This document shows positions 11,232 through 63,999 of a DNA stretch of 64,000 bases, piece after piece (the stretch's first letter is position 1; every line of letters starts with the position of its first letter). This DNA is from an uncultured bacterium. Its GTDB lineage: Bacteria; Omnitrophota; Omnitrophia; Omnitrophales; Abzuiibacteriaceae. The DNA lies in contig CAYLXA010000011.1 of assembly GCA_964387845.1 (NCBI GenBank), forward strand, positions 32,001 through 96,000. The letters run 5' to 3'. The position numbers and the translations under genes were made by a program. Below the pieces are notes generated by a model. It was not told the DNA's origin and searched no databases. It saw only the letters and a list, made by a program, of their open reading frames with translations.

Positions 11232-11277
11232 CCTCAGTTTTCTTTGTTTTTATCTGTAAATAAGCTATAAATCCTGC

Positions 11278-17306: not shown

Positions 17307-17825
17307 ATGGCAAAAAAGCTGGAAGAAAAGATTTTAGACGTTGATGCGAGTATGCAGGGAACGATCACATTTCGTGATCCTGTTAACCTGCGTATTAACG
17401 GAAGTTTTGAAGGCCGTTTGGATGTCCGAGGGAATTTGACCATTGGTGAAAATGCTAACGTGAAAGCCGATATCAGAGGCGATAAAATCTTAGTTGCAGG
17501 AAAAGTGACCGGTAATATCACGGCGTCTGCCAGTCTGGCGGTTATATCGCCTGCGGTGATTCGCGGCAACATTAAGTCCCCGATTTTCAGTGTTGCTGAA
17601 GGTTCCGTTATTGAAGGTCAAGTATCGATGACAAATTTACAAAATTTAGATGCCAATAGCACGCTGTCGTTGCGCGATTTAGCCCAGTACCTTGAAGTTG
17701 AGATGCGCGTCATTGAAGAGTGGGCGCGTGAGAAAAAAATTCCCGGCCGTCAAGAAAACGGCGAGTGGCGGTTTAATAAAGCCACGATTGATAAATGGGT
17801 GCAGGACGAAAAAGTAAAATTGTAA
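17307..17825 (+). CDS. Bactofilin (DUF583 polymer-forming beta-helical cytoskeletal domain) fused to a C-terminal excisionase-type helix-turn-helix (HTH_17) DNA-binding domain
   Basis: Residues ~20-120 show the bactofilin repeat pattern (…RINGSFEGRLDVRGNLTIGENANVKADIRGDKILVAGKVTGNITA…). The C-terminal 50 aa (LSLRDLAQYLEVEMRVIEEWAREKKIPGRQENGEWRFNKATIDKWV) is a typical excisionase/MerR-like HTH. AAGGAGGG RBS before the ATG at 17307. Confidence 0.65.
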   Translation: MAKKLEEKILDVDASMQGTITFRDPVNLRINGSFEGRLDVRGNLTIGENANVKADIRGDKILVAGKVTGNITASASLAVISPAVIRGNIKSPIFSVAEGSVIEGQVSMTNLQNLDANSTLSLRDLAQYLEVEMRVIEEWAREKKIPGRQENGEWRFNKATIDKWVQDEKVKL

Positions 17826-27292: not shown

Positions 27293-27337
27293 ACGCACCC
27301 ATGTTAATTGTCATCCATCCAAACCGTATTCATTAAC

Positions 27338-28369: not shown

Positions 28370-29100
28370 AAGCAATTTGCGTGATTCCGGCCCGGCTTGA
28401 ATCCACAAGACTTGCGCGCAAACTTTTAAGGCCTCTTGCTGGCAAACTTTTGATACAATACGCCTACGAAAATGCAAAGCGCGCCAAAAAATGTGCAAAA
28501 GTTTTAGTGGCCTGTGATCACGAAGATTTGATAAAGGCCGTCGAAGCGTTCGGCGGCGAAGCGGTGCTGACGAGTGAGTATCACCAAAGCGGTACCGAAA
28601 GAATTGCGGAAGTGGCGGAAAAATTTCCGGCCGATGTGTATGTGAATTTACAGGCGGACGAGCCGCTCCTTCATTCGAGCGCAATCGATGATCTGATTTC
28701 CGCTTTTGAAGTCGAGCCGGATTTGAAAATGGCGACGGCTTGCATCCGGATGCGCGAAGAATCCGATTTTCTGAACCCGAATGTCGTAAAAGTGGTCAAA
28801 AATCAGAAGGATGAAGCGCTTTATTTTTCGCGTTCGCCGATTCCGCATGACCGCGAAAAGGCATCGACAGATTTTTTTAAGCATCTCGGGATTTACGCGT
28901 ATGAGCGTCAGTTTTTGATTAAAATTCCGAAGCTGACGGCGTCGAATTTAGAAAAACGCGAGAAATTAGAACAACTGCGCGTACTCGATAACGGTTTTAC
29001 GATCAAAGTTTTGGAAACGGCTTACGATTCGATCGGCGTTGATACGGAAGAGGATTTGAAAAAAGTGGAGAAAATATTGAAAGAAGGCGCCCGTGCCTAA
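28366..29100 (+). CDS. kdsB: 3-deoxy-manno-octulosonate cytidylyltransferase (CMP-Kdo synthetase)
   Basis: [16 protein letters not shown]…EQLRVLDNG motifs. 244 aa. Confidence 0.9.
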
Positions 29101-30775
29101 GTATATTTTTGTGACCGGCGGCGTGGTTTCATCGCTCGGCAAAGGCATTGCTTCCGCGTCCATCGGCAAGCTGCTCGAAACCAAAGGGCTTAAAGTCATG
29201 ATGCAAAAGCTGGATCCTTACATCAACGTGGATCCCGGCACGATGAATCCTTACGAGCACGGCGAAGTTTACGTGACGGATGACGGCGCCGAAACGGATT
29301 TGGATTTGGGCCATTACGAGCGCTACACACATTCACCGCTCGGAAAGTTCAGCAACGTCACGACCGGCCAGGTTTATTACAGCGTGATTTCAAAAGAGCG
29401 GCGCGGCGATTATTTGGGCAGCACCGTTCAAGTAATTCCGCACATCACGGATGAAATCAAGGAAAGAATCCGCGCAGTGTCGAAAGGCAAACGCTGCGAT
29501 GTCGTGATTTCCGAAATCGGCGGAACGGTCGGCGATATCGAATCGCTTCCGTTTTTGGAAGCCGCGCGCCAATTCCGCCACGAAGTCGGGCGCGACAATG
29601 TGATTTTCATTCACCTCACACTTCTTCCGTTTATCCGGGCAGCCGGAGAACTCAAAACAAAACCGACTCAGCACAGCGTCGGCCGTTTGCGCGAAATCGG
29701 TATTCAGCCCGACATTTTGCTTTGCCGGACGGAACGCCGCCTGGGAAATGACTTGAAACGTAAGATCGCGCTTTTCTGCGACGTGGATACCGACGGCGTC
29801 ATCGAAGCGCGCGACGTTCGGACGATTTATGAAGTCCCGCTGATGTTTAAAGAGCAAGGACTCGACAAAGCGATTTGCCGCTTTTTGGGAATCGATTATA
29901 AAGCCGGCAATTTGCAGGATTGGAAATCGAACGTTGTGGATAAGGTCCTTAATCCGAAGCATCGCGTCAGAATCGCGGTGGTCGGAAAATACATCGAACT
30001 GAAAGACGCCTATAAATCAATTTATGAGGCGCTTACGCATGCCGGTATTGCAAGTAATACGGAAGTGATCATCCGCCGCTACAACGCTGAGCGGATGATG
30101 AAGGGGAATTTGGACCGCTTTCTCTGGAATATTGACGGTATTTTGGTTCCGGGTGGATTCGGCAGCCGCGGCATCGAAGGAAAAATCCGCGTGATTCAGT
30201 ACGCGCGTGAAAATAAAGTGCCGTTTTTCGGCATTTGTTTGGGGATGCAATGCGCTGTGATTGAATTTGCGCGCAACGTTGCCAATCTCAAAAATGCAAA
30301 CTCCACCGAATTCAATAAAAAGACCCCGCATCCCGTGATCAGCATGCTGGAAGAGCAGGAGGGCGTTAAAGACCTGGGCGGCACCATGCGCTTGGGTGCA
30401 TATCCGTGCGATTTGAAAAAAAATACGAAAGCGCATGACGCGTACCGCGCAGACCAAATTTCAGAGCGCCACCGCCACCGTTACGAATTCAATAACAAAT
30501 ACCGTGAAACGCTCGAGTCACACGGGCTGCGCGTTTCGGGAACCTATCAAAATAATAAGCTGGTTGAAATCGTTGAGTTGCCGGAACATCCGTGGTTTGT
30601 GGCCGGCCAGTTTCATCCGGAGTTTCAATCAAAGCCTGACGTGCCGCACCCATTGTTCAAATCATTTGTAGCCAAGGCGCTTCAATTTAAGCGCTCGGTT
30701 GATTTAGCGGATCATGAACAAGACGACGATAACCAAAACACCGAAACCATCCATGAAACCAGTACGCTTGCTTGA
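29093..30775 (+). CDS. pyrG: CTP synthase
   Basis: N-terminus [18 protein letters not shown]-terminal glutamine amidotransferase domain with GICLGMQ. 560 aa. Confidence 0.93.
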
Positions 30776-31574
30776 CATTACTTTCGGAAGCCCGAACGAG
30801 TTTGTGTTGATCGCGGGCCCCTGTGTCATTGAAAACGAGAAAAGCGCGCTGCGCCACGCCGAGAAAATTTCGCAGGTCGCACGCGAACTTCAGATTCCGT
30901 ACGTGTATAAATCCAGTTTCGACAAAGCCAACCGCTCTTCCGGAGATTCCTTTCGCGGTCCTGGTATCAAAAAAGGCTTGGCAATTCTGAAGAAAATCAA
31001 AAAGGAATTTGATGTTCCGATTTTAAGCGACATTCACGAAATTGCGCAGGTGAAGCCGGCTGCTGAAGTGATCGACATTCTGCAAATCCCGGCGTTTTTG
31101 TGCCGTCAGACGGATTTGGTGGTTGCGTGTGCCAAGACGAAAAGAATTGTGAACGTGAAGAAAGGCCAGTTTTTGGCGCCGTGGGATATGAAAAATATCG
31201 TCCGAAAAATTGAGGCCGCCGGAAACCGCAATATTTTACTCACGGAGCGCGGCGTTTCGTTCGGCTACAATTATTTGGTGAGCGATTTCCGCGCGATCCC
31301 GGTCATGCGCGAACTGGGTTATCCGGTTGTGTTCGACGCAACGCATTCCGTACAGCTTCCGGGCGGCTTGGGGCATGCTTCAGGCGGTAACGCCGAATTT
31401 ATTCCGACGCTTGCACGCTGCGCGATTGCGAGCGGTGCCGATGCGATTTTCATGGAAGTCCACGAAAATCCGAAGGAAGCCAAATCCGACGGGCCAAACA
31501 ATTTGCCGCTTTCAGAACTCAAGTCGCTTCTTACGGTTTTAAAACACATCCGCCGGGTAGCGCCTGTCCACTAA
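30753..31574 (+). CDS. kdsA: 2-dehydro-3-deoxyphosphooctonate aldolase (Kdo-8-phosphate synthase)
   Basis: [20 protein letters not shown] and FDATHS motifs. The start is taken at MKPVRLL, overlapping the pyrG 3' end by 23 nt. Confidence 0.88.
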
Positions 31575-31575
31575 A

Positions 31576-32541
31576 ATGAAATCCGACCGCACGCTGGCCA
31601 AAAAAATCATCAAAGTTGAAGCTGACGCGATCAAAGCGCTTTTGTCGCGCATTGACCAAAAGTTTGAGAAAGCGCTCAGCTTGCTCGAAAATGCCTCAGG
31701 CCGTGTCATCATCACGGGAATGGGCAAGCCCGGTTTGATCGGCCGAAAAATCGCGGCAACACTTGCTTCGACGGGAACGCCGAGTCTTTTTTTACATCCG
31801 GCCGAAGCCATTCACGGTGATTTGGGGATGGTGACGAGGCATGACGTTGTGCTAGCGATTTCAAACAGCGGGGAAACGGAAGAAATCACAAAACTGCTTT
31901 CCACGATTAAAAAAATCGGCTCCAAATTAATCGCGTTAACGGGGAATTTGAAATCCACTTTGGCGCGCCATGCGGACGTGGTTCTGGATGTCGGCGTTCA
32001 TTCCGAAGCTTGCCCATGGGGCTTGGCACCGACCGCTTCAACAGCGGTTGCGCTTGCGCTTGGCGATGCGCTTGCGTTATGTCTTGCGAAACGAAAAGGC
32101 TTTAAATCCGAAGATTTCGCATTTTTGCATCCGGGCGGCAGTCTCGGTAAAAAACTGCTGCGCGTGAAAGACATCATGCGGACCGGAAAAGCGCACGCGG
32201 TTGTGAAAGAATCGACCACCGTCGAGAAAGCGCTCTTTGCGATTACGGCTGCACGTGCAGGATCTTGCAGTGTTGTGAATTCAAGCGGAAGGCTGGTCGG
32301 GTTTTTTACCGACGGCGATTTGCGGCGTCATTTGAGGGAAGAGGGTGTCCGCATTCTTCAGATGCGGATTTCGAAAATCGCTACCCGGAAACCGACCACG
32401 ATTTTGCAGGATCATCTGGCAGCGGAAGCTTTTCAAAAGCTTCGGGACCGTAAAATTGACGAACTTCCTGTCGTAGATCAAAAGGGCCGCGCAGTCGGGC
32501 TCTTGGATGTTCAAGATCTTCTCAAAGCCGGTATTTTTTAG
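31576..32541 (+). CDS. kdsD: Arabinose-5-phosphate isomerase (KpsF/GutQ family; SIS domain plus tandem CBS domains)
   Basis: SIS-domain motif VIITGMGKPGLIGRKIAATLASTGTP. C-terminal CBS pair. 321 aa. Confidence 0.85.
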   Translation: MKSDRTLAKKIIKVEADAIKALLSRIDQKFEKALSLLENASGRVIITGMGKPGLIGRKIAATLASTGTPSLFLHPAEAIHGDLGMVTRHDVVLAISNSGETEEITKLLSTIKKIGSKLIALTGNLKSTLARHADVVLDVGVHSEACPWGLAPTASTAVALALGDALALCLAKRKGFKSEDFAFLHPGGSLGKKLLRVKDIMRTGKAHAVVKESTTVEKALFAITAARAGSCSVVNSSGRLVGFFTDGDLRRHLREEGVRILQMRISKIATRKPTTILQDHLAAEAFQKLRDRKIDELPVVDQKGRAVGLLDVQDLLKAGIF

Positions 32542-48487: not shown

Positions 48488-49777
48488 ATGTTGTTTCGCT
48501 TGTTGTACAAAGCAGCTCTTTGTTTATACGGTTTGGCTTACTTGCCTCATTTAATCATGCGGGCAAAGCAGGAGCCCGATCAAGGCCGCTTTTTGAAAGA
48601 ACGGCTCGGAAATTTCGCGCAGGATTTCGGCGGTGCGCCGTGGATTTGGATTCATGCCGTCAGTGTCGGTGAAGCCATGGCGCTCCGAAAATTTCTCGAA
48701 AACCTGCAGGCGCGTTTTCCGGAGTTCCGGATTTTAATTTCGACCACGACGCCGACAGGCCAGAAAATCGCGCAAGGTTTTAAAAACGAAAAAATCCGCG
48801 TGGTTTATTTTCCGCTGGATTTCCGGTCAATGATGAAACGCGCAATTGATGCGGTAAAACCGCGCATGATTGTTTTGATGGAAACCGAAATTTGGCCGCA
48901 TCTGATTGATTTGGCGCATGAACGGCGGATTCCGATCGGCATTATGAACGGACGGATTTCGGAGCGTGCTTTTAAGAAATACCGAAAGATTAAGTTCTGG
49001 ATGTCGCCCATTTGCGCCAAGCTTTCATTTTGCCTGGTACGTGAAAACGGTGACCGGGAGCGTTTTCTCGAGCTGGGAGTTTCGGTGGATAAGATTCAAG
49101 TGACGGGCAATATGAAATATGACGTTGATGCGGAATTAGATGCAGCCGCGTTGCGTGAATTTCAGACAGCGCTCGGACTTCAAAATGAATTGCTTTGGAC
49201 CTGCGGCAGTACGCATGACGGGGAAGAGGCGGTTTTGCTCGAGGTATTTTCGAAATTAAAGGAGAAATTTCCGAAGTTGAAGCTGATTTTAGCGCCGCGC
49301 CATCCGGAACGTGCACTTCAAGTATTAAATCTGGCAAAAAATGCCGGATTTCAAGCCGTGCTTTACAGCCGGAGGGAATCAGCTTTTGATGTGTTGGTGG
49401 TGGATCTTGTGGGGCTTTTGCAGAAATTTTATGCGGTATCGAATTTGGTGTTTGTCGGCGGAAGCTTGATTCCGCACGGCGGGCAAAACCCGATTGAGCC
49501 GGCTCGCGAAAGTAAGCCAGTGCTTTCCGGGCGCCATGTTCACAATTTTGAGCAAGTGTTCGAACAGTTGGAAAAATCCGGAGGTGCTGTTCTGGTTTCC
49601 GGATCGGAAGAATTATACAAGCACGCTTTATCGCTTTTAACGGATCTGCCCAGAACGAAAGAAATGGGTGAGCGTGCTTACAAAACAGTTAACGGATTAA
49701 AAGGCGCTTCGCAAAGAAATTTGCAGGCCCTCGAACCTATTTTGCGTTCAGCAGAAAAACTTGAGGTGGTTACATGA
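48488..49777 (+). CDS. waaA: 3-deoxy-D-manno-octulosonic acid (Kdo) transferase
   Basis: N-terminal WIHAVSVGE motif. GT30 fold. 429 aa. Followed by lpxK. Confidence 0.88.
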   Translation: MLFRLLYKAALCLYGLAYLPHLIMRAKQEPDQGRFLKERLGNFAQDFGGAPWIWIHAVSVGEAMALRKFLENLQARFPEFRILISTTTPTGQKIAQGFKNEKIRVVYFPLDFRSMMKRAIDAVKPRMIVLMETEIWPHLIDLAHERRIPIGIMNGRISERAFKKYRKIKFWMSPICAKLSFCLVRENGDRERFLELGVSVDKIQVTGNMKYDVDAELDAAALREFQTALGLQNELLWTCGSTHDGEEAVLLEVFSKLKEKFPKLKLILAPRHPERALQVLNLAKNAGFQAVLYSRRESAFDVLVVDLVGLLQKFYAVSNLVFVGGSLIPHGGQNPIEPARESKPVLSGRHVHNFEQVFEQLEKSGGAVLVSGSEELYKHALSLLTDLPRTKEMGERAYKTVNGLKGASQRNLQALEPILRSAEKLEVVT

Positions 49778-50808
49778 CGACAAAGAATTATTTTAAGTCA
49801 ATTATTGAAGGCAGGCGCAACGACGCCGACGCTTCGTTCTGGAAACCCTTGCTGTCACTGGCAAGCCGTTTGTACCGGACGGCGGTCGAGGCGCGCAAGT
49901 CGTTTTACGACAAAAAAGTTTTCAAATCCAAAGCGCTTCAGATTCCGGTGATCAGTATCGGAAACATCACCTGGGGCGGCGTCGGGAAAACACCGCTTAC
50001 GCAATACATCAGCCGGTTTTATTTGGACCAAAAGAAAACCCCGCTCATTTTAACGCGCGGTTACGGTAATGACGAAACGCGTGAGTTCCAGACCAAGGTT
50101 CCGGAAGCGCTTTTGGGCGTCGGTAAAAACCGTTTTGAAGTGGCCAGTCAGCTGCTCAAAAGCCAAAAAGCCGATGCTGCGATTTTAGACGACGGTTTTC
50201 AACATTACCAGCTTGCGCGCGACCTTGATATTGTGGTGATAAATGTGCTCAATCCTTTCGGAAATGAAAAACTCATTCCGCGCGGTATTTTGCGCGAACC
50301 GCTTGAAGCGCTTGACCGGGCGAATATCGTTGTATTCAACGATGTGAATTTAATTTCGCGCAAATCATTCGAATCCATCCGCGACCGCGTGAAACAACTA
50401 GCGCCGCGCGCGGAACTGATCGAAGCGCAGCATGAGCCGCTCTACTTTTATTGGGCAAAATCAAAAGCGCGCATGGACCTGAACAAGGTCAGCGGAAAGC
50501 CGGTTACGACATTCTCGGGCGTCGGAACCCCTCGGTCATTTCAGCTTTTGCTTAATTCCTTGGGCGTGAAAACCGTCCGGAATTTTGAATTTTGTGACCA
50601 TCATCCGTTTTCGGAAAAAGAGCTCCAGGAAATTCAGGAGGTCAAACGGTCAAGCCAGTCCGAGTTTGTCATCACGACCGAAAAAGACCTTCTCAGAAAA
50701 GAAGAGCTGATCACAAACATCCTAGATCCGCTGGTTTTAAAAATTTCGATGCGCATCACGGTCGGGGAATCGATTTTGCAGGACCGTTTGCGGCACATTT
50801 TGCGTTAA
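49774..50808 (+). CDS. lpxK: Tetraacyldisaccharide 4'-kinase
   Basis: P-loop ISIGNITWGGVGKTP. 344 aa. Confidence 0.88.
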   Translation: MTTKNYFKSIIEGRRNDADASFWKPLLSLASRLYRTAVEARKSFYDKKVFKSKALQIPVISIGNITWGGVGKTPLTQYISRFYLDQKKTPLILTRGYGNDETREFQTKVPEALLGVGKNRFEVASQLLKSQKADAAILDDGFQHYQLARDLDIVVINVLNPFGNEKLIPRGILREPLEALDRANIVVFNDVNLISRKSFESIRDRVKQLAPRAELIEAQHEPLYFYWAKSKARMDLNKVSGKPVTTFSGVGTPRSFQLLLNSLGVKTVRNFEFCDHHPFSEKELQEIQEVKRSSQSEFVITTEKDLLRKEELITNILDPLVLKISMRITVGESILQDRLRHILR

Positions 50809-50821
50809 AAAGGAGAAAAGC

Positions 50822-52765
50822 TTGTTCGATTCACTGGCTTATCATACGGTTAAAATTTTCGCGGGGTTTATCCAGCGCATGCCGGTCGGTTTTAATTTTT
50901 TTCTGGCCGGTATTTTGGGGAATCTCGCGTATTTATTGGATAAACGGCGCTACGTGGCTTATGCCAATCTGAAGGCCGCCTTCGGTACCGAATGGACGCC
51001 GCGTGAAATCAGGGCGATTATCCGGAAAAGCTACGTCCATTTTGCGAAAACTATGATGGAAATTCTTTATTTTCCAAAAATGGATAAAGCTTATATCGAA
51101 AAATATATTCAAATGAATAATCCCGAGTTTTATCAAGAGGGTGTCAGCGGTAAAAAAAGCACTATTTTTATGATGGCACACTTTGGCAATTGGGAGCTTG
51201 CGCAAATTTATTCCGGCATTCTAGACAAACCGCTTCATATTTTTGCGCGTGATCAAAAGCACACCCGCTTGAATGATTTTTTAAATCAACTCCGCGCCGC
51301 GCACGGCGCCCAAACCATTTCAACCTCACGGGTCCGCGAACTTATGCGGGCCATTCGGGAGAAAAGGGCCATCGGCGCTTTGGGCGATCAGGGCGGCGGG
51401 CCGGATGGAGTTATCGCGCCGCTTTTTGGGCGCAAAGCCACATTTCCGAGAGGGCTGGTTTCGCTTGCCGCGAGAATGGGAGCATCGATTGTGCCTGCTT
51501 TTATGATTCGCCAAAATGGCCCGTATCAGCTGATCCAGGTTTTTCCGCCGCTTAATTTAATTCAGACAGGCAATCAGGAAAACGATGAAATTAAGAACAA
51601 TCAGCTCTTTTTAAATCACCTGGAAAAAATGGTCCGGCAATATCCGGAACAGTGGTTATGGCAGTATAAATGGTGGAAATTTTCCAGGACCAAGAAAGTT
51701 TTGATTTTGGAAGATACGAAAGCCGGCCATGCCGCACAGGCGCGCGCGATCGGCCGGGAATTTGAGAGACTGGCCAAAGAATTGCCCGAGGGTTATGAAA
51801 TCAAAACCGAATATGTGAAGGTTGAATTTAAAAACAAACTGGCTTCGATTCTATTTTTTCTCGACTCGTTTTTCTTTTACCCTTTTGCGCAAAGCCGGCT
51901 TTGGATTATGAAATGGTATTTGAAGCCGTCTTCGTTCGAAAAAATCAAAAATGTGCATGCGGACGCCGTTGTGGCCTGCGGCTCCAAATTAACACCGGTT
52001 GCGTTATGGCTTTCGCGAGAAAATTTGGCCAAAACGGTTATCGTGATGAAACCTTCGTTCCCATACCAATTTGCGCATTTTGACCTTGTGATTTTGCCGA
52101 AGCATGACCATGCCGGGAATTTGAAGTCTCATCATATCCGGACCACGGTTGCGCCGAATCTGTCGGATATCGATCATTTGAATCACCACCGGCAGAAATT
52201 GGCGGATGTTTTGCATCTCAACGGAAAATCAAGGCTTTCGATTTTTATCGGCGGTGACTCCAAATCATACAAATTGGAGAAGTCAAAGATGGAAAATTGG
52301 CTGAATACTTTGGCCGAGCTCAGCCGGAAAAAACATATGGAGTTTATGATCACAACATCGCGCAGGACAGGCGCCGGCATTGATGCGCTTGTCCGAGAAA
52401 AAACGGCGAAAAATCCGAATTGTAAGTTGATGGTGATTGCAAACGAGAAAAATATCGAAGGCATTACTTACGGGATGCTCGCTTCTTCCGATGTGGCGGT
52501 TGTGACCGAAGACAGCGTATCGATGATTTCGGAAGCTTTGAGCGCGGGGAAGCGCGTGATTGTGCTCAAGGCCGGAAACGGCCAATTACCGCGTAAACAC
52601 CGTGAATTTCAGGAACTTTTGGCGAGCGAGGGTTTAATCGAAGTGGCAACTGCCGATGATTTTTCTGTTAAATTCGAAACTGCTCAAAAACACGGAGCAA
52701 ATACAAATTTGATCGAAGCAGAACGAAAATTAATTCGGGATGAGCTCAGAAAAATTTTAATCTAG
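50822..52765 (+). CDS. Fusion protein with an N-terminal LpxL/HtrB-type lipid A late acyltransferase domain and a C-terminal ELM1/DUF1022-like (GT-B-like) domain
   Basis: The N-terminal ~300 aa has the lysophospholipid-acyltransferase HX4D-type region (MMAHFGNWELAQ). The C-terminal ~340 aa begins VLILEDTKAGHAAQARAIG, which resembles the DUF1022 signature sDGkpGhenQ. TTG start with an AAGGAGAA RBS. Confidence 0.65.
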   Translation: MFDSLAYHTVKIFAGFIQRMPVGFNFFLAGILGNLAYLLDKRRYVAYANLKAAFGTEWTPREIRAIIRKSYVHFAKTMMEILYFPKMDKAYIEKYIQMNNPEFYQEGVSGKKSTIFMMAHFGNWELAQIYSGILDKPLHIFARDQKHTRLNDFLNQLRAAHGAQTISTSRVRELMRAIREKRAIGALGDQGGGPDGVIAPLFGRKATFPRGLVSLAARMGASIVPAFMIRQNGPYQLIQVFPPLNLIQTGNQENDEIKNNQLFLNHLEKMVRQYPEQWLWQYKWWKFSRTKKVLILEDTKAGHAAQARAIGREFERLAKELPEGYEIKTEYVKVEFKNKLASILFFLDSFFFYPFAQSRLWIMKWYLKPSSFEKIKNVHADAVVACGSKLTPVALWLSRENLAKTVIVMKPSFPYQFAHFDLVILPKHDHAGNLKSHHIRTTVAPNLSDIDHLNHHRQKLADVLHLNGKSRLSIFIGGDSKSYKLEKSKMENWLNTLAELSRKKHMEFMITTSRRTGAGIDALVREKTAKNPNCKLMVIANEKNIEGITYGMLASSDVAVVTEDSVSMISEALSAGKRVIVLKAGNGQLPRKHREFQELLASEGLIEVATADDFSVKFETAQKHGANTNLIEAERKLIRDELRKILI

Positions 52766-52775
52766 AGGAAACCTC

Positions 52776-54947
52776 ATGAGAGTACTTCAAGTATTGCCGG
52801 AACTGAATGTGGGCGGGGTTGAACGCGGCGTGATTGACCTTGCGCGCGCCATGAAAAAACACGGCGAAGAAATTCATGTGATGTCGCGGGGTGGTGCGCT
52901 TGTCCAGGAACTCGTGAAGATGGGCGTGCCGCATTATGCGCTGCCGGTTCACGATAAATCAATTTGGTCATTGCGCCTCGTGAAGGAAATCGCAAAAATC
53001 ATCGAACGTGAGCGCATCGACATCGTGCATGCCCGAAGCCGCGTGCCGGCTTGGCTTGCATATCTGGCAGCACGCCGCACGAATTGCGATTTTATTACGA
53101 CCTGCCACGGTTATTATTCGAAGCATTTTCTAAGCCGCATCATGGGCTGGGGAAAGCGCGTGATTGTAATCTCGCACAGCATCGGCCGCCGCATGATCGA
53201 TGATTTTCACGTGCCGCCCGAGCGGATCCGTCTCATCCACCGCGGCGTAGATTTAACGCAGTACACATTTTCACCCGAAAAATATCTGAAGCCGGCCGGC
53301 GAGAAATTCAAAATCGTCAACATCGGCCGCATCACGCCCATCAAAGGCCAGAAGGAGTTCATCCAGGCGATTCATCTCCTGAGCAAACAAATTCCGAATG
53401 TGGAAGCTTGGATTGTTGGTTCGGCGGATGACCGGAAAATGGAATATTTCGAAGAGCTGAAACTTTTTGTCGAACGGACCGGCATGACCAAGCACGTAAA
53501 ATTCTTGGGAACGAGGCGCGATATTCCGGAGCTTTTGCGCGAGGCCGACCTACTGGTGCTTTCCACGAAAATTCCGGAAGCATTCGGGCGCGTGATCATT
53601 GAGGCAGGGGCAGTCGGGACAGCGGTGTGCGCATCGCGAATCGGCGGCATTCTCGATATCGTTGAAGACGGCAAAAACGGGCTTCTTTTTTATCCGCTTC
53701 ACATCGAAGAAATGGTCAAAGCGATGACACAGCTGCTCAAAAACCGGAAGCAATGCTACGACTTCGCGCACAAGCTCCGCGAGAAAGTCGAGCGTGAATT
53801 CAGTCTCGAGCAAATGGTCGACAAAACACTCGAAGTTTACCGCGAAACCCGTCAGGAGCGCAGGATTTTGATTATTAAACTTGGCGCGGCAGGCGACCTG
53901 GTTTTGGCGATACCAAGTTTCCGCATGCTGAGGAAAAAATTTCCGAATGCGCACATTTCACTTTTGGTTGATTCAAAATTGACCTCGCTCGTAGAAAATT
54001 GCCCCTATATTAATGAAGTGATCGCTTATGACCGCGGCGAAAAAACAAACCGGCTGCGAAGGCTTCTGAAACTTTCGAAAAGCCTGGCTGAGCGGCGCTT
54101 TGATTTGTCGATCGACTTACAGAATAACGCCAAAACGCATTTAATCAGCTTCCTGGGCCGTATCCGCAACCGAATCGGGTACTTGAGGGGATGGAGCGGC
54201 CATTTGCTCAGCAAGCCCGTGTTAGAGCCCAAGCAGCTTTTGGCGCCGATTGAACATCAGTTCGAGCTCCTGAAACGTGTCGGAATCACACAGCTCGATA
54301 CCGAAATGGAATTGTGGCCGACGGAACAGTCGGAAAAGTTTGCGGAAGAGCAATTGAATACAAACCAGCATTCACATCAGCCGCTTGTCGGCTTTGTGAT
54401 GGGTTCAAGTCCGGGTTGGCCCACAAAACGCTGGCCGGTAGAACATTTCCGAGAGCTTGCGGAACGCATTGTGCAGGATTTAGACGGTAGAGTCGTCCTT
54501 TTGGGCGCGCCGGGCGAGGAAGGCCTTGCGGATGTATTTAAAAATCATTCTCTGGGCACAGACCGCCTCATTAATTTGATCGGAAAAACCACTTTTTCGG
54601 ATATGGCAAGCGTGATCAAGAGGTCGAATGTATTGGTATCCGGCGATAGCGCACCCATTCACATTGCGGCTGCTACGAAAACAAAACTCGTCGCCTTTTT
54701 TGGGCCCACGGAGCCTAAGCGCCATTTGCCGCCCGGTGCCGATCACGCGGTTTTGGTGCGGCGGATTCCGTGCCAGCCGTGTTACTCGGGCCATTGTAAA
54801 AACCCGGATACGTTGGAATGCCTCAAAAAAATAAAAGTAAACGAAGTATTTGAGCAAGTGAAATATCAGCTTGCATCCGCACAAAAGAGCCGCGCGAAGC
54901 ATGACGCTTCGGAAGATAAGGTCGGCACGCCGGCGGAATCCGTTTAG
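52776..54947 (+). CDS. Fusion of a GT4 (group 1) glycosyltransferase with a GT9 ADP-heptose:LPS heptosyltransferase domain
   Basis: The N-terminal ~370 aa is GT4-like, with an EX7E-type region in the second Rossmann half. The C-terminal ~350 aa starts ILIIKLGAAGDLVLAIPSF, a classic GT9 N-terminus. 723 aa. Confidence 0.75.
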   Translation: MRVLQVLPELNVGGVERGVIDLARAMKKHGEEIHVMSRGGALVQELVKMGVPHYALPVHDKSIWSLRLVKEIAKIIERERIDIVHARSRVPAWLAYLAARRTNCDFITTCHGYYSKHFLSRIMGWGKRVIVISHSIGRRMIDDFHVPPERIRLIHRGVDLTQYTFSPEKYLKPAGEKFKIVNIGRITPIKGQKEFIQAIHLLSKQIPNVEAWIVGSADDRKMEYFEELKLFVERTGMTKHVKFLGTRRDIPELLREADLLVLSTKIPEAFGRVIIEAGAVGTAVCASRIGGILDIVEDGKNGLLFYPLHIEEMVKAMTQLLKNRKQCYDFAHKLREKVEREFSLEQMVDKTLEVYRETRQERRILIIKLGAAGDLVLAIPSFRMLRKKFPNAHISLLVDSKLTSLVENCPYINEVIAYDRGEKTNRLRRLLKLSKSLAERRFDLSIDLQNNAKTHLISFLGRIRNRIGYLRGWSGHLLSKPVLEPKQLLAPIEHQFELLKRVGITQLDTEMELWPTEQSEKFAEEQLNTNQHSHQPLVGFVMGSSPGWPTKRWPVEHFRELAERIVQDLDGRVVLLGAPGEEGLADVFKNHSLGTDRLINLIGKTTFSDMASVIKRSNVLVSGDSAPIHIAAATKTKLVAFFGPTEPKRHLPPGADHAVLVRRIPCQPCYSGHCKNPDTLECLKKIKVNEVFEQVKYQLASAQKSRAKHDASEDKVGTPAESV

Positions 54948-54949: not shown

Positions 54950-55963
54950 ATGGTCATTATTTGCGTCCTCAAGAATTGGCTCGGCGATGTGATTTTCACA
55001 TCGCCTGCGCTCCGGACGATCCGGATGAATTATCCGGCCGCACAGATTATTTGTCTGGCGCCCAAACGCTGCTCGGATATTTTGCGGGCAAACCCCAATG
55101 TGGACGAAGTCATTTCATTTGACGAACGTAGCGAACAAAAAAGTTTATCGGAAAAATGGAAGCTGATTTTAAAGCTGAGGCGGTTTAAGCCGGATCAAGT
55201 TTATTTGTTTCACAGGTCGCTCACGCGCGCATTTTTGATGTTCCTGACCGGCGCTAAGGAGCGGATCGGGTATGCCGGCAAGCGCGGTTTTCTATTAACA
55301 AAAGCAGTTGCCGAGCCCAAAGAAAGAATGCACGCGGTTGATTATAATTTAGAGCTTTTGCGAAGAGCCGGATTTCAAGTCACGGGAGATGCTCTCTATG
55401 AATTCCGCTTTGACAAGAAAGATTTGGAAAACGCGAAAAGAATCATTACGGAAGCGGAATTGGGCCATGAACGGATTATCGCGATTCACCCGGGCGCCAA
55501 TTGGCCGCCCAAACGCTGGCCAATCGAGCATTTCCGCGCGTTGTCACTTGAGCTGACGCGCCGTTACCGGGTGTCGGTTGTGATTACGGGCGGCGCCGAT
55601 GACCGCGAAGCGGCCGAGAAAATTGCGGCTGATGCCAGTCATCCGAACATTCGGTCACTTGCCGGAAAAACAAGCTTAAAAGAGCTCGGCGCATTATTTT
55701 CACTTTGCACGCTTATGATTTCTTCCGATTCGGGGCCGCTTCATATCGCAGGCGGCGTCGGTACAAACGTGCTCGGCATTTTCGGGCCTACGAATCCTGC
55801 GCTCACCGGCCCTCGGGGCAGGGGTAAAAATGTGGTCATTCATTATGTGCCGAAAGGAATGAAATCGCCTTGGTTTGGTGACGAATTTCCTCAGTCCGGC
55901 TGGATGGAATTAATTACGGTCAATGAAGTTTTACAGACTATCGAACGGGAAAGGCTTTTGTAG
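54950..55963 (+). CDS. GT9-family heptosyltransferase (WaaC/WaaF/WaaQ-like), paralog 2
   Basis: N-terminal LGDVIFTSPALR and C-terminal DSGPLHIA motifs. 337 aa. Confidence 0.8.
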   Translation: MVIICVLKNWLGDVIFTSPALRTIRMNYPAAQIICLAPKRCSDILRANPNVDEVISFDERSEQKSLSEKWKLILKLRRFKPDQVYLFHRSLTRAFLMFLTGAKERIGYAGKRGFLLTKAVAEPKERMHAVDYNLELLRRAGFQVTGDALYEFRFDKKDLENAKRIITEAELGHERIIAIHPGANWPPKRWPIEHFRALSLELTRRYRVSVVITGGADDREAAEKIAADASHPNIRSLAGKTSLKELGALFSLCTLMISSDSGPLHIAGGVGTNVLGIFGPTNPALTGPRGRGKNVVIHYVPKGMKSPWFGDEFPQSGWMELITVNEVLQTIERERLL

Positions 55964-55964
55964 G

Positions 55965-56897
55965 ATGGATCTTTCAAAGGTTGAAAAAATCTTGGTCGTG
56001 ACGCTGAGTAATTTGGGCGATATTGTGCTCACGACACCGGTGATGGCAGCGCTGCGCGACCGATTTCCAAAAGCATTTATGACAGTTATTGTCGGGCCAA
56101 AAGGCAAAGACCTTTTAGCCAACAGCGCGACGATCAACGAAATTTTGATTTATGATAAAACGAAGCCGCTTTTCGAAAGGGCGAAATGGGTCTTGGAACT
56201 TCGGAAACGGAAGTTCGATCTTGCCGTCGACCTTCGCAATACAGCAATCCCACTGCTTGTCGGCGCACGATATTTTAACAGCATCTTTTTTGATCATCGC
56301 GAAAAGCGAGCCCGGAAAAAGCATTTAAGCCGGATTCAATTTTTGGGGATCGGAGAGCCGAAGAGCCGGTTTCAATTTTTTACGCCGGATGAAGAAAAAT
56401 CGGCGCTTGCGAAATTGAGAAAAGCCGGTGTGTTCAATGAATCTTGGATTGCGATTGTGCCGGGCGCGGCCAACCATTTGAAGCGCTGGCCGTATGAGCG
56501 TTATGCTGAAATAGCAGCTCACTTTAAACAGAAAGGATTTCAAACGGTTATTGTGGGAAGCGGCGCCGAACGTGCGATGGGCGACCTGGTTGCTAAGTGC
56601 AATCCGGGCATTGGCATTATCAATGCCTGCGGTTCATTTGAGATCCGCGAGGTGGCAGCTGTTCTGAGTCATTCGAAATTGATTGTATGCAACGACAGCG
56701 GCCTGATGCATTTGGCAAATGAGCTTGATATTCCTGTGGTTGCTATTTTTGGGCCCACGAATCATTTGCAATACGGTAAGTTTGGCCCTAAAAACCGGGT
56801 GGTTCACGGCGACGGCAGCCAGTTTTCTATTCATCAAATCAAAACTCCGGATGTTGTCCGCGCGTGTGAGGAATTATTAAATGGCGCCCAACATTAA
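55965..56897 (+). CDS. GT9-family heptosyltransferase, paralog 3
   Basis: LGDIVLTTPVMAAL…NDSGLMHLA. Start at the ATG at 55965, right after the upstream stop. Confidence 0.8.
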   Translation: MDLSKVEKILVVTLSNLGDIVLTTPVMAALRDRFPKAFMTVIVGPKGKDLLANSATINEILIYDKTKPLFERAKWVLELRKRKFDLAVDLRNTAIPLLVGARYFNSIFFDHREKRARKKHLSRIQFLGIGEPKSRFQFFTPDEEKSALAKLRKAGVFNESWIAIVPGAANHLKRWPYERYAEIAAHFKQKGFQTVIVGSGAERAMGDLVAKCNPGIGIINACGSFEIREVAAVLSHSKLIVCNDSGLMHLANELDIPVVAIFGPTNHLQYGKFGPKNRVVHGDGSQFSIHQIKTPDVVRACEELLNGAQH

Positions 56898-57945
56898 CCC
56901 GGGAAAAATCAAACGCATTTTGCTGGTTCGTACAGACCGCATTGGTGATGTGGTGGTCACAACGCCGGTTTTTCGTGCCGTTAAGGAACAATTTCCAGCC
57001 GCACATCTTGCCATTCTCGTCGACAAAGCGCTTCGCGATTTGGTGGAAGGACATCCGGATTTAGATGAAGTTATTTTGTATGATAAAAAAGGAAGCGAAA
57101 AAAGTTTGCTGGGAGCTTTCCGCTTTGCTCGTACTTTAAAACAAAAAAAGTTTGACGCTGCCATTCATTTTCATCCGCGCGCCCGCGCATACTGGACAAG
57201 TTTTCTGGCCGGCATTCCGGTTCGAATCGGATACAAAAGAAAGAACCATTGGCTGCTTACGCATTCGATCAAAGACAATAAGGGCGAAGGGAGAAAGCAT
57301 GAAGCGGAGTATGTTTTTGATTTGCTGGCACTTTTAGGAATCAAGCGCCCCCAAAAACTGATTGCTAGCATACCGCTTCAGGAAAAGAGCCAGGAAAGTG
57401 CAGAGCGGCGCTTGAGCGGCATCGGCCGGTTTTTTGCAGTCCACCCGAGCGCCAGTTCGCCGTCTAAAATTTGGCCGGCTTCGTATTTTGCGGAAGTCGC
57501 GGATTTTTTAGCGCAAAAATTTCAGCTGACACCGGTTTTAATCGGCGGAGCTTCGGATTCGAAGCAGGGCAAAACCGTTTTCAGTTTGATTAAATCAAAA
57601 TCGATTAACTTGTGCGGCCAATTAAGCTTGGGTGAATTGGCCTGGGTGCTCAAAAAATCCGAATTGGTGATTTCGAATGACTCCGGGCCAGCACATATCG
57701 CTTCTGCGGTCGGAGCGCCCGTCATTTCCATTTTCGGCCGAAGTTTGGCCGGCCTCGGGCCTGTGCGCTGGCATCCGCTCAATGAAAAGAGCTGGTATCT
57801 GCAGAAAGACGTGGGCTGTGCGGTTTGCCTTGCGGATTTATGCCAGATTGAGTTTAAATGCCTGACCGAATTAAAGCCTGCGGATGTGATTCAATTGATC
57901 GAAGAAAAACAAAGCGAGATTTTTCAGCATGCAAAAGCCCGTTAA
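56881..57945 (+). CDS. GT9-family heptosyltransferase, paralog 4
   Basis: IGDVVVTTPVFRAV…NDSGPAHIA. 354 aa. Confidence 0.8.
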   Translation: MAPNINPGKIKRILLVRTDRIGDVVVTTPVFRAVKEQFPAAHLAILVDKALRDLVEGHPDLDEVILYDKKGSEKSLLGAFRFARTLKQKKFDAAIHFHPRARAYWTSFLAGIPVRIGYKRKNHWLLTHSIKDNKGEGRKHEAEYVFDLLALLGIKRPQKLIASIPLQEKSQESAERRLSGIGRFFAVHPSASSPSKIWPASYFAEVADFLAQKFQLTPVLIGGASDSKQGKTVFSLIKSKSINLCGQLSLGELAWVLKKSELVISNDSGPAHIASAVGAPVISIFGRSLAGLGPVRWHPLNEKSWYLQKDVGCAVCLADLCQIEFKCLTELKPADVIQLIEEKQSEIFQHAKAR

Positions 57946-59080
57946 ACGAGTGCTTCTCATTCATCCTTTCGGAATCGGCGATGCGCTTTTCATGACGCCC
58001 GTGATTGATGCGTTGAAGCAAGCCGGTGCCGAAAAAATCGATTTGCTTTTGGGCAGCCGGACAAAAGCCGTTTTTGAGCATAACCCGTCCGTTGATGAAA
58101 TTTTCGTTGTTGACCGAGACAAGATCCGGAGCCAGTCAACATTCCGTAATATTTTGGAAACAGCGAAACTGGTTCTTAAACTCCGGAAAAACCGGTATGA
58201 CCATCTGTTTGATTTCTCTTTGGCGCGGCAATACGCATTTTTTGCTTTTTTATTTCTCAACATTCCGAAACGCATCGGATTTCATTATAAAAGGCGCGGC
58301 ATTTTCCTGACACACAGGATGGTTCTCGAGAAAAGTTTTTCCGGCAAGCACGTGATTGAATATTATTTAGAACTTTTGAAATTCGTCTCTATCCGGCCGT
58401 CTACGCGCTCGATCCAACTGTCCATCACAAAAGAAAATGAAGACGAAGCAGAGGGTGTTCTACGCAAAGAAAACGTTCCGCCATTTTTTGCCGTTGCGGT
58501 CCCGGGCGGCGGCGAATCCTGGGGGAAAGATGCCCGGCTTAAGCGGTGGCCGACGGCGCATTTTGCGAAATTGTTTGAACTTATCGACAAAGACAAAAGT
58601 TTAGGATCGGCGCCTTTCAAAGTTGTTATTTTGGGCGGCAAAAGTGAATCGGAGCTTGCCGAATCTCTAAAAGCTTTGAACCCCGGCCGCTTTATTAATT
58701 TAGCGGGGAAGCTGCCGCTTCTTGCTTCGGCGGCGGTTTTAAAACGCGCACGGCTTCTTGTGGCCAACGACGGCGGTTTGGTGCATGTCGCAGCGGCCGT
58801 TGGGACGCCCACGATTGCTTTATTCGGGCCGGTTGACCCGAAAGTTTACGGCCCGTATCCGCTTCACCCGGCGCGTATCGCAGTCACAAACGACGGACCG
58901 GAATGCCGTCCGTGTTATCAAAATATGCGTTATAATAGCGCCTGTGAACATGTGGAATGTTTAACCGGACTTTCGCCGGACGGTATTTTTTACCGGCTCA
59001 GTGAGTCCGGATTTTTTGAACGAATTCAAAAAGCGCCGGTTTCTGCGGCAGCCGATACTCATTTATATGAAAATCAATAA
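57929..59080 (+). CDS. GT9-family heptosyltransferase, paralog 5
   Basis: IGDALFMTPVIDAL…NDGGLVHVA. 383 aa. Confidence 0.8.
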   Translation: MQKPVKRVLLIHPFGIGDALFMTPVIDALKQAGAEKIDLLLGSRTKAVFEHNPSVDEIFVVDRDKIRSQSTFRNILETAKLVLKLRKNRYDHLFDFSLARQYAFFAFLFLNIPKRIGFHYKRRGIFLTHRMVLEKSFSGKHVIEYYLELLKFVSIRPSTRSIQLSITKENEDEAEGVLRKENVPPFFAVAVPGGGESWGKDARLKRWPTAHFAKLFELIDKDKSLGSAPFKVVILGGKSESELAESLKALNPGRFINLAGKLPLLASAAVLKRARLLVANDGGLVHVAAAVGTPTIALFGPVDPKVYGPYPLHPARIAVTNDGPECRPCYQNMRYNSACEHVECLTGLSPDGIFYRLSESGFFERIQKAPVSAAADTHLYENQ

Positions 59081-61650: not shown

Positions 61651-63999
61651 ATGAATTCGACCCTTGCTAATCGTTCAGAAACCGGAAGTTTTTCGCGAAG
61701 TAAAAACCACCGGCCCCTCTTTGTTCTTATTTTTCTTTACGCTATGTTTTTCCTGGTTTCGAAACCATCCTTTGCCGACACCATTGTTCCGGGCGGGAAT
61801 ATTTCATCTAACATAACCTGGACTTCCGCCGGAAGTCCGTACATTGTTCAGGGTAGTATCACGGTTAGTTCGGGCACTTTAACCATTGAACCGGGTGTTG
61901 TCGTAAAAGCAGAGCCAAATGCAAACGTAGAAATCCGGACTTCCGGTGGAAAACTTTTTGCGGAAGGAACGTTAGAAGAGCCAATTTTGTTTACTTCAAA
62001 CAGCGCAAATCCTTCCCCGGGCGAGTGGAAAGGCATTTTCTTTGATGGAGGCACCGCGACCGATTCGTCTCTTAAGCACTGCACAATTGCCTATGCTCAG
62101 AATGGAATCCGAATTAGTCAAAATGTTTTTATGTTTGTGCAAAACACCACGTTTCAAAACAATTCAAGCGTTGCTGTTTCAGCGCCTACTCTCAAAGAAA
62201 CCCGTAATTTCGGCTCTGGAAACACTTATATTGGAAATGGCAGAGATGCAATTGAGTGGACTGCTACCTTAACCGCTACGGTCGATCAAGATATGACACT
62301 TGCCAGTCAAGGTGTCCCGTATATTGCGAATGGGAGTATCAACGTAGCTCGTTTTGTTGGTCTTTCGACTATGACTGTCCAGCCTGGTGTTGAAATCCGA
62401 TTTAAACCGAATCAAAATCTAAAATTTGAAGTTGGCGGAGGTGGTTGGCAGGGCAGAGTACTTTTTCAAGGCTCGCAAGCTCAGCCGATCCGTTTAACAG
62501 TTGATAGCCAGAACCCTACGCCCGGAAGCTGGCAGGGAATTCGGTTTGACACTGGAGCACAGCCAGGTTTTATCCTAGATTATGTCATTTTTGAATATGC
62601 CGGCGCCCCCGCTGTTAGTGTTCCGCAGGATCTTGGTTTTTATACCATCTCCCATTCTACTATTCGTCATTCATCCGGAATCGGCGTATCTTTAAGAGGG
62701 AATGGCGCGTTACAAAATAACATTATAGAAAATAATGGCGGTCAAGGAATTGAAATTTTATCCGGTTCACCATCCATCCTATCCAACACGGTTCAACAAA
62801 ATGCATCAACGGGTCTTTTGATGCAATCAAATGCGGGAACTCCATTAATTGATGACAACCATTTTCTGAATAATGGAAGCCGAGCTGCGAACATCTATTC
62901 ATTAAGGCAAATTCGCAATATGACTCAGAATAATACTTTTTCCGGAATAACCAATCCAATTTGCCAATGTATTGAATTTATGAATACGGCACCTACTTTG
63001 ATTAATTATGATACGACACTTTATGATTTTACTTACCCTTATGTGTTTAATGGAAGTATCCAGGTTTATCGGGAAGTTCCTCCACATTCAACATTAACCA
63101 TTCAACCTGGAACCGAACTTAAATTTAAGCCAGGCCAGAATTTAATCCTCGGAATTGGATATAGACCCAACCAGTATGTGGGCGCTTTAGTTGCTTTAGG
63201 CGATGATCAAAATCCTATTCGTTTTAGTTCTGCTGCTGCAGTGCCGGCACCCGGCGATTGGCAAGGGTTGAAATTGGAAGGATTTATGATTCCCGATCAA
63301 ATGTCCAATGTGATAGTTGAGCATGCCGGAAATGCCGGTATTACCGTATGGGATACGCATCTTGAAATTAACAATTCGACCATCCAAAATAATTCCGGCG
63401 ATGGTATGCAAATCGTTGGTTCCGGCCAGCTGGATGTGAAAAACACTTCATTTCTCTCTAACGGATTAAAAGCCATTAATCATACAGGATCTTCCGGCGC
63501 GGTACTCGCTCCGCTTAATTGGTTCGGAAGTTCGAACGAGCCATCCGCACAAGTTTCAGGTAGTGTTCAATATGAACCTTGGCTTATTTCAGCACCAACG
63601 ACGCCGTTTCAATGGACAGCGGCCAATCTTTCATCCAAACAGTTTAATCCCGACGAAAGTTCGGCAACATTTCAATTTAGTCATCCGGAAGCTGCCAATT
63701 GGATGCTTGAAATTTTAAATTCAGACCTCAGCCAGGTACTAAAAACGATCAAGGGGCAAGGCCCGAATCCGTCCATTATTGAATGGAATGGAAATGATGA
63801 TAGTAAAGAATTTTTGCCGGATGGTATGTATAAGTATCGTTTTAGCGGCTCAAGCCAAATAACCAGCCAACAGGCTGCGCCTGCGTTGGGCAACATTCAA
63901 TTAAATAATGCGTTGCCTGCGGCGGAAATTATTTTGCCGACCGCTTCTCAAATTATTCCCGGCCATACAATTGTGCAAATCCAAGGAACTGCTCAAGGA
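61651..63999 (+). CDS. Large secreted right-handed parallel beta-helix repeat protein with a FlgD-Ig-like domain (5' partial, continues beyond the window)
   Basis: I translated the open frame from the ATG at 61651 to the window edge by hand and found no stop. The N-terminal signal peptide is …FFLVSKPSFA|DT. Repeated NN(S/G)GxGIxI/…beta-helix repeats are present (NNGGQGIEILSGS, NNSGDGMQIVGSG). Near residue 700 the pattern …IIEWNGNDDSKEFLPDGMYKYRF matches FlgD-Ig-like domains. Confidence 0.65.
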   Translation, partial: MNSTLANRSETGSFSRSKNHRPLFVLIFLYAMFFLVSKPSFADTIVPGGNISSNITWTSAGSPYIVQGSITVSSGTLTIEPGVVVKAEPNANVEIRTSGGKLFAEGTLEEPILFTSNSANPSPGEWKGIFFDGGTATDSSLKHCTIAYAQNGIRISQNVFMFVQNTTFQNNSSVAVSAPTLKETRNFGSGNTYIGNGRDAIEWTATLTATVDQDMTLASQGVPYIANGSINVARFVGLSTMTVQPGVEIRFKPNQNLKFEVGGGGWQGRVLFQGSQAQPIRLTVDSQNPTPGSWQGIRFDTGAQPGFILDYVIFEYAGAPAVSVPQDLGFYTISHSTIRHSSGIGVSLRGNGALQNNIIENNGGQGIEILSGSPSILSNTVQQNASTGLLMQSNAGTPLIDDNHFLNNGSRAANIYSLRQIRNMTQNNTFSGITNPICQCIEFMNTAPTLINYDTTLYDFTYPYVFNGSIQVYREVPPHSTLTIQPGTELKFKPGQNLILGIGYRPNQYVGALVALGDDQNPIRFSSAAAVPAPGDWQGLKLEGFMIPDQMSNVIVEHAGNAGITVWDTHLEINNSTIQNNSGDGMQIVGSGQLDVKNTSFLSNGLKAINHTGSSGAVLAPLNWFGSSNEPSAQVSGSVQYEPWLISAPTTPFQWTAANLSSKQFNPDESSATFQFSHPEAANWMLEILNSDLSQVLKTIKGQGPNPSIIEWNGNDDSKEFLPDGMYKYRFSGSSQITSQQAAPALGNIQLNNALPAAEIILPTASQIIPGHTIVQIQGTAQG

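Follow-up and report, generated by a model that had tools for sequence, protein, structure and literature searches.

The closest described relative of the enzyme considered here is found in Acinetobacter baumannii, where every outer-core locus carries, beside ilvE, a gene for a PF06258 protein that Kenyon and Hall named GtrOC1 and predicted to form the first link beyond the inner core of the lipopolysaccharide (LPS) (PMC4172580, PMC10327509). In 2024, VanOtterloo et al. reported in mBio that deletion of the ELM1-like gene A1S_2903 leaves Kdo2-lipid A (Kdo, 3-deoxy-D-manno-oct-2-ulosonic acid) and that its product acts with LpsB, an enzyme of glycosyltransferase family 4 (GT4), in the addition of a third Kdo (KdoIII) and N-acetylglucosaminuronic acid (GlcNAcA) (PMC10936431). 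To this genetic evidence VanOtterloo, Voss and Trent (JBC, December 2025) added an in vitro activity, renaming A1S_2903 and LpsB as KdoT and GnaT and defining KdoT as a CMP-Kdo:Kdo2-lipid IVA KdoIII transferase (CMP, cytidine monophosphate; PMC12856342). Core extension in a kdoT deletion mutant is restored by the homologues of four further Acinetobacter species and of Rickettsia rickettsii, the rescue of the outer-membrane barrier being only partial with the Rickettsia homologue (PMC12856342, PMC10936431). A domain of this family forms the second half of a 647-amino-acid (aa) protein encoded in the stretch of DNA analysed here, 64,000 nucleotides (nt) from an uncultured Omnitrophota bacterium (assembly GCA_964387845.1, contig CAYLXA010000011.1, positions 32,001 to 96,000), which we call the window; the first half is an acyltransferase domain of the LpxL type, and we refer to the gene as lpxL::ELM1.

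From comparative analysis, we put at roughly 0.6 the probability that the fusion protein is bifunctional, a secondary acyltransferase joined to a KdoT-family transferase of Kdo, with both halves acting on Kdo2-lipid IVA. One protein would then probably carry two steps on one LPS intermediate. The less specific claim, that the C-terminal domain is a catalytically competent KdoT-family glycosyltransferase working somewhere on the Kdo/lipid A region, is very probable. Kdo2-lipid IVA is the canonical LpxL substrate; KdoT prefers the same lipid, and so the fusion brings together two enzymes with one substrate to share or compete for. An earlier note on this DNA had divided the protein into an LpxL/HtrB-type N-terminal half and an ELM1/DUF1022-like C-terminal half, and Pfam bears out both assignments: PF03279 (Lip_A_acyltrans) matches aa 12-286 with E 1.5e-40 and 139.6 bits (cutoff 22.3), covering profile positions 21-294 of 295, and PF06258 (Mito_fiss_Elm1) matches aa 301-610 with E 3.2e-53 and 181.3 bits (cutoff 27), covering positions 1-279 of 304. 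The strong ribosome-binding site and TTG start described in the same note are likewise present (Table 1), the AAGGAG lying just past the lpxK stop codon (50806-50808).

The same note had asked whether a sequencing frameshift might have joined two genes. Stand-alone ELM1 genes do exist in some relatives (loci L037 and L062, and 33 of the 150 representatives counted below, some of which are fragments), as would be expected if a frameshift or a lost stop codon had run two separate genes together here; comparison, however, excludes such an artefact, to which we assign a practically negligible probability. At least 120 homologues with both domains at full length, about 645-650 aa, are on record at 33-80% identity, and wherever a source name includes an organism it is Candidatus Omnitrophica/Omnitrophota. 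We aligned 67 of these Omnitrophota homologues, independent sequences from many assemblies that span 31-80% identity and underlie all our statements of invariance; the junction from K286, the last acyltransferase residue, to D298, the first glycosyltransferase residue of the segment, is exactly 13 residues long in 67/67. An exhaustive HMMER scan with the C-terminal domain returned 2308 representatives (50% identity) at E <= 1e-3, and among the best 150 of these 112 are LpxL+ELM1, 5 are LpxK+ELM1 and 33 are ELM1 only. The identical 647-aa protein is recorded both in NCBI and in Logan (P0001). The AlphaFold2 model of the whole protein (mean predicted local distance difference test score, pLDDT, 93.9; predicted template-modelling score 0.89) is confident across the junction, and has no 10-residue block with pLDDT <85. 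The constant junction length and the 112 fused representatives mean that the fusion is real, old and under constraint.

The setting of the gene is conserved as well. At about 35 loci from GTDB species representatives, all labelled Omnitrophota save for a few automated "Planctomycetia" labels, the order is topA-xerC-waaA-lpxK-lpxL::ELM1-GT4::GT9-(GT4)-(deacetylase)-GT9s-DUF3108, where GT9 is the heptosyltransferase family. Relatives in Nitrospirota, Zipacnadia and Hebobacteria (L038, L049, L078) have waaA-lpxK-lpxL-GT9 without the ELM1 domain. A complete 1.14-Mb Omnitrophota chromosome (L024, CP070655.1) has the fusion gene at 9974-11818, interrupted by a masked run of N that makes the C-terminal half unreadable. 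Its apparent truncation is due to that run, and the notion that its ELM1 half is degenerate was dropped; neither GT4 nor GT9 genes turned up downstream of the fusion gene in this chromosome, an absence that may or may not be real. Public automatic names for the fusion proteins range over "hypothetical", "ELM1/GtrOC1 family putative glycosyltransferase", "mitochondrial fission ELM1 family protein" and "KDO2-lipid IV(A) lauroyltransferase". Our literature search found no paper on this fusion or on LPS assembly in Omnitrophota. The fusion is thus so far undescribed, with both domains drawn from known families, and is not a new kind of system.

By profile, catalytic dyad and fold, the N-terminal half is a member of the LpxL/LpxM/LpxP family (PF03279). 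H120, W124 and E125 of its HX4E motif are invariant; the domain matches A. baumannii LpxM (PDB 5KN7) in phmmer with E 1.2e-13, and its model matches LpxM 5KNK and 5KN7 in Foldseek with E 4e-13 and 1.3e-12 (target-normalised template-modelling score, TM, 0.66-0.68) and also resembles the related PatA (TM 0.8, target-normalised). With LpxL, LpxM and LpxP it has in common the HX4(D/E) dyad, the fold with an N-terminal hydrophobic helix, and a position within a waaA-lpxK-lpxL cluster like that of the unfused relatives named above. It differs from LpxM in sequence (about 22% identity) and in bearing a glycosyltransferase domain at its C-terminus. The 64-kb window holds no second LpxL-like gene.

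The C-terminal half can be compared with KdoT residue by residue. The SRRT motif of KdoT is invariant and needed for activity, R180 above all (R179 and R180 were mutagenised), and its arginine is proposed to bind the Kdo carboxylate, while D8, H13, H109 and D110 are conserved yet individually dispensable, the D8A, H13A, H109A and D110A proteins being active (PMC12856342). KdoT peptides were derived by translating the published cloning and mutagenesis primers. The KdoT N-terminus, MHIVYVSDGKAGHRSQALG, aligns with the peptide that opens the C-terminal half of the fusion protein, VLILEDTKAGHAAQARAIG (aa 292-310); AVIPEHDGIPA aligns with 423-VILPKHDHAG, and ILTTSRRTPAE with 509-MITTSRRTGAG. The motifs DxKAGHxxQ, PxHD, TTSRRT and TEDSVSMI are all present in the window domain. 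Among the homologues, D298, G302, H303 and Q306 are invariant, as are T512 to T516 (also in the alignment with the Acinetobacter sequence described below) and S565, S567 and M568, with E571 nearly so; [ST]RR[ST] is present in 146 of the best 150 family representatives.

A full-length Acinetobacter reference had to be assembled from the record. The search with the concatenated KdoT peptides returned only frameshifted N-terminal fragments of 32-90 aa, one of which led to a gene directly after ilvE in an Acinetobacter chromosome (L082, CP033550.1), and the published KdoT N-terminus is therefore tied to the gene position at which Kenyon and Hall place gtrOC1. The reference is a 294-aa sequence stitched from this locus across two assembly frameshifts. 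At the N-terminus it agrees exactly with the published kdoT primer, at the 3′ end almost fully with that for A. nosocomialis kdoT, and it has HD at 109 and SRRT at 178, the numbering of KdoT (PMC12856342). Frameshifts at this A. baumannii-type locus (608167-620439) split many genes, among them kdoT/gtrOC1, glnE and glycosyltransferases of the outer-core locus, and dozens of N-terminal KdoT fragments of 45-90 aa are on record from various Acinetobacter assemblies; these fragments are probably indel errors of long-read assemblies and not biology. Against the stitched reference, the window domain has 34% identity over 181 aa of its central and donor-binding parts in BLASTP (E 1e-20), with the donor-binding half best conserved, and 25% identity over a full-length MAFFT alignment. 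Thirteen positions are invariant when the Acinetobacter sequence is included: D298, G302, Q306, H428, D429, S513, R514, R515, T516, S565, M568, E571 and A572. The model of the domain is a GT-B fold with two Rossmann halves (pLDDT 96.4). A sequence search of the PDB with this domain found no relative of solved structure, and NCBIfam has no model that matches the C-terminal half. The likeness to KdoT and its R. rickettsii homologue thus takes in the PF06258 family, the GT-B fold, the motifs and a GT4 enzyme that comes next in pathway or locus. Kdo2-lipid IVA is the stage at which KdoT works, and the prediction for the window domain is the same. KdoT, however, is a stand-alone protein of about 294 aa from an outer-core locus by ilvE, whereas the window domain is fused behind an LpxL-type acyltransferase (in a few relatives, LpxK) and sits in a heptosyltransferase-rich locus; Acinetobacter is without heptose. 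It also carries a second insertion relative to KdoT, of about 15 residues before the donor half, beside the longer one taken up below.

That so many conserved residues of KdoT can be replaced singly leaves the family without a known classical catalytic base, and it might be asked whether the domain is a catalyst at all. PF06258 takes its name from plant ELM1, a mitochondrial fission factor of the same Pfam family that is described as an adaptor recruiting a dynamin-related protein, and by analogy the window domain could be a non-catalytic scaffold, membrane-targeting or regulatory module for the acyltransferase. This we regard as very improbable. KdoT alone is catalytically active in vitro; its conserved residues, the required SRRT arginine included, are all invariant across Omnitrophota sequences that are only 31-80% identical; the donor-binding half is the best conserved; and the domain is not tied to LpxL, since stand-alone and LpxK-fused versions exist. 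Plant ELM1 itself is a eukaryotic adaptor without a known glycosyltransferase role and its function is irrelevant to an LPS locus in bacteria.

A harder question is which sugar the domain transfers, and here several observations weigh against the assignment of a Kdo-transferring fusion on Kdo2-lipid IVA. We infer the donor and the linkage from a homologue that is only 25-34% identical, and the position of the acceptor, which of the two reactions comes first and any channelling between the halves are likewise proposals. In the acceptor half, domains of Omnitrophota type have a hydrophobic insertion, about 45 residues long, that is absent from Acinetobacter KdoT. The KdoIII of A. baumannii is attached to O5 of KdoI, where cores with heptose bear heptose I; with five GT9 domains at the window locus, either the linkage or the role of the GT9 domains must differ. 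Other PF06258 paralogues (GtrOC14, 19a-c and 22) are encoded in the variable part of Acinetobacter outer-core loci (PMC4172580, PMC10327509), so that Kdo may not be the only sugar the family handles. For the N-terminal half, the best NCBIfam match, NF006270, reaches 138 bits against a cutoff of 248, and all 17 models of lipid A acyltransferase type (those for lauroyl/myristoyl acyltransferases fall on aa 1-290) are below their equivalog cutoffs; whether the role is that of LpxL, LpxM or LpxJ is not settled by sequence. Taken at face value, the paralogues suggest diverse specificities, and together with the low identity, the acceptor-half insertion and a core of heptose type, with O5 of KdoI perhaps already occupied, they make it possible, at something over one chance in four, that the ELM1-type domain is a GtrOC-like core glycosyltransferase and that the sugar it adds to Kdo or lipid A is not Kdo but a hexose, a hexuronic acid, a heptose or another ulosonic acid. 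On the other side, CMP-Kdo is the donor of the only members defined by biochemistry, and the Rickettsia homologue, though phylogenetically distant, brings back core extension where kdoT has been deleted. Conservation extends to the SRRT arginine and to all of the donor-side motif TEDSVSMI, and the domain's fusion partners, LpxL or LpxK, indicate the stage of Kdo2-lipid IVA and not the outer core. We retain the reading in which the donor is CMP-Kdo. The statement in the earlier note that DUF1022/ELM1 proteins act on an unknown substrate is out of date in view of the KdoT work (PMC10936431, PMC12856342), and its candidate modification, with KdoT activity now established, narrows to Kdo transfer; its more general inference, that secondary acylation is physically coupled to glycosyl transfer on the Kdo/lipid A region, stands, and the non-canonical inner core that it suggested is plausible.

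Put as a mechanism, the fusion protein would be a bifunctional, membrane-associated LPS enzyme. The HX4E dyad of its LpxL/LpxM-type domain would place an acyl chain from acyl-acyl carrier protein onto Kdo2-lipid IVA, and the KdoT-like domain would transfer Kdo from CMP-Kdo onto the Kdo2 that WaaA has made on the same lipid, giving a third Kdo, with the SRRT arginines positioning the carboxylate and phosphate of the donor. The GnaT-like GT4 domain of the next gene, and then the GT9 domains, would extend the core.

Relatives with other architectures bear on the stage at which the domain works. LpxK::ELM1 proteins, about 680-718 aa when complete, are encoded in the Omnitrophota single-cell genome AM-311-K22 (L036:8945-11095) and recorded as P0155, P0157, P0210, P0213 and P0233; there is no LpxL domain at the L036 locus, and the arrangement may stem from deletion of the LpxL part. 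Because the domain is fused to LpxK in this minority, it is again tied to the lipid IVA stage, early in core assembly, which supports the placement proposed here. LpxB is also a GT-B enzyme and acts just before LpxK, so that the same LpxK fusion could be taken to mean that the ELM1-type domain replaces LpxB as lipid A disaccharide synthase. The chance of this is minimal, and we rejected the idea because a canonical lpxB lies in the same window (Table 1); moreover, according to the legend of a supplementary figure in the KdoT study, KdoT is inactive on substrates of the lipid IVA stage without Kdo. In 36 of 38 loci, those with stand-alone ELM1 (L037) and LpxK::ELM1 (L036) among them, the ELM1 domain has a GT4 domain after it, which parallels the order of reaction of KdoT and then GnaT. 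A stand-alone Omnitrophota PF06258 paralogue (L062:10016-11140) has neither the SRRT nor the HD motif and lies in an unrelated context, with a downstream open reading frame (ORF) whose weak ResB-like match does not reach the Pfam gathering score; this paralogue may have another function or be inactive.

Table 1. The fusion gene, its motifs and the LPS genes of the window (window positions; E values from profile matches unless stated otherwise).
Feature	Position	Strand	Evidence or correspondence
lpxL::ELM1 fusion gene	50822-52765	+	647 codons + stop; ORF list and translation
Shine-Dalgarno sequence AAGGAG	50810-50815	+	6 nt 5′ of the TTG start; read directly in the sequence
N-terminal domain, LpxL/LpxM-family secondary acyltransferase, aa 1-287	50822-51682	+	
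HX4E catalytic dyad motif, H120-FGNW-E125	51179-51196	+	Regular expression; aligns with HFGTWE of LpxM
C-terminal domain, KdoT/GtrOC1/ELM1-family GT-B glycosyltransferase, aa 288-647	51683-52765	+	
N-terminal loop motif, D298-T-K-A-G-H303-A-A-Q306	51713-51739	+	KdoT D8..H13..Q16
H428-D429	52103-52108	+	KdoT H109-D110; invariant in the 67 homologues and the Acinetobacter sequence
SRRT motif, T512-S-R-R-T516	52355-52369	+	R515 = KdoT R180; S513-T516 = KdoT S178-T181
TEDSVSMISEA, donor-binding half	52505-52537	+	TEDSVSMI identical in the Acinetobacter KdoT homologue (BLASTP)
waaA (Kdo transferase, makes Kdo2-lipid IVA)	48488-49777	+	PF04413 E 1.3e-58; NF004388 E 1.8e-108
lpxK (lipid A 4′-kinase), immediately 5′ of the fusion gene	49774-50808	+	PF02606 E 3.7e-70
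GT4::GT9 fusion, 723 aa, next gene 3′	52776-54947	+	Pfam GT4 families aa 12-333; GT9 aa 431-676
Four consecutive GT9 (heptosyltransferase-family) genes	54950-59080	+	PF01075 E 1e-30 to 1e-39; TIGR02195 matches
kdsB	28366-29100	+	CTP_transf_3 match
pyrG, between kdsB and kdsA	within 28366-32541	+	Cytidine triphosphate synthase match
kdsA	30714-31574	+	DAHP_synth_1 match
kdsD	31576-32541	+	SIS+CBS match
Canonical lpxB	7256-8518	-	PF02684 E 9.9e-97; tblastn with Escherichia coli LpxB, 35% identity, E 9e-61

The neighbourhood of the fusion gene is for the most part as the earlier note had it, with waaA and lpxK directly upstream and a run of GT9 genes downstream; the adjoining 3′ gene is, however, a GT4::GT9 fusion and not a plain heptosyltransferase gene. 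Two bifunctional LPS enzymes thus stand in tandem, since this second fusion is itself conserved: GT4 and GT9 domains occur back to back and in the same order in nearly all the Omnitrophota loci examined, and a fused ORF was confirmed in L036. The GT4 half (52776-53850) has an EX7E motif, E268-E276. GnaT of A. baumannii is the GT4 enzyme that transfers GlcNAcA from its uridine diphosphate (UDP) derivative to KdoIII, and the GT4 half shares with it EX7E in the same context (E-x-F-G-R-x-x-x-E-A) and the N-terminus M-R/K-V-x-Q-x-L-P-E-L-N (MRVLQVLPELN in the window, MKVMQLLPELN in GnaT as derived from primers). By this resemblance, the GT4 half is a candidate for the next step after the KdoT-like domain, but it is only a lead, because the comparison draws on primer-derived peptides and on similarities that are partly generic GT4 features, and the window GT4 is fused to GT9. 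Further upstream of waaA lie topA and xerC/D; the downstream side also has genes for a DUF3108 protein and a polysaccharide deacetylase.

Elsewhere in the window, kdsB-pyrG-kdsA-kdsD provide the supply of CMP-Kdo, the proposed donor. Immediately upstream of kdsB is a PfkB-family sugar kinase gene (27308-28369, +), whose product could be the heptose-7-phosphate kinase of the adenosine diphosphate-heptose pathway, which would fit the five GT9 domains. The window also encodes lpxA and an MsbA-like ABC transporter. Directly after lpxA is an LpxI-type UDP-2,3-diacylglucosamine hydrolase gene (LpxI_N + LpxI_C; 969-1772, +), and there is no LpxH-type gene among the window ORFs scanned. A Gfo/Idh/MocA oxidoreductase gene (8391-9335, -) abuts lpxB, the two ORFs overlapping; oxidoreductases of this family of the GnnA type make UDP-GlcNAc3N for lipid A with 2,3-diamino sugars. 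A GT87-family membrane glycosyltransferase gene (15052-16266, +) followed by a PAP2 phosphatase gene (16512-17177, +) may encode enzymes of envelope or lipid A modification on the periplasmic side. At 17253-17825 (+), a bactofilin domain and, at the C-terminus, an HTH_17 DNA-binding domain occur in one protein of 190 aa, an unusual pairing. The 3′ end of the window (61.5-64 kb), which has a lower GC content and no listed ORFs, is taken up by a gene for a secreted right-handed beta-helix protein of at least 783 aa (61651-63999, +), cut by the window end; the same stretch has no Rfam matches and no tandem repeats.

The fusion is unlikely to greatly surprise a specialist. It does correct, in practice, the database names under which these proteins are filed, and it comes at a time when a function for bacterial ELM1-like proteins has been established only in 2024-2025 and only in Acinetobacter, with complementation from Rickettsia. 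That the domain is fused to LpxL across a phylum, and now and then to LpxK, provides independent evidence of the "Rosetta-stone" kind for Kdo2-lipid IVA as the intermediate on which the family works, and extends transfer by KdoT-family enzymes, independent of WaaA, to a deep-branching and largely uncultured phylum. A naturally bifunctional enzyme is also a test case for the coupling of late acylation with extension of the inner core. More tentatively, and with the odds against it, Omnitrophota may build the inner core with one hard-wired enzyme of two activities, its KdoT-type domain adding a third Kdo, another ulosonic acid or a sugar in the same encounter as the secondary acyl chain, before heptosylation or in competition with it. 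If so, these bacteria would have an inner-core structure and an order of assembly without parallel in model bacteria, and the LpxK::ELM1 proteins would mean that a KdoT-type domain can be coupled to different steps of lipid A synthesis.

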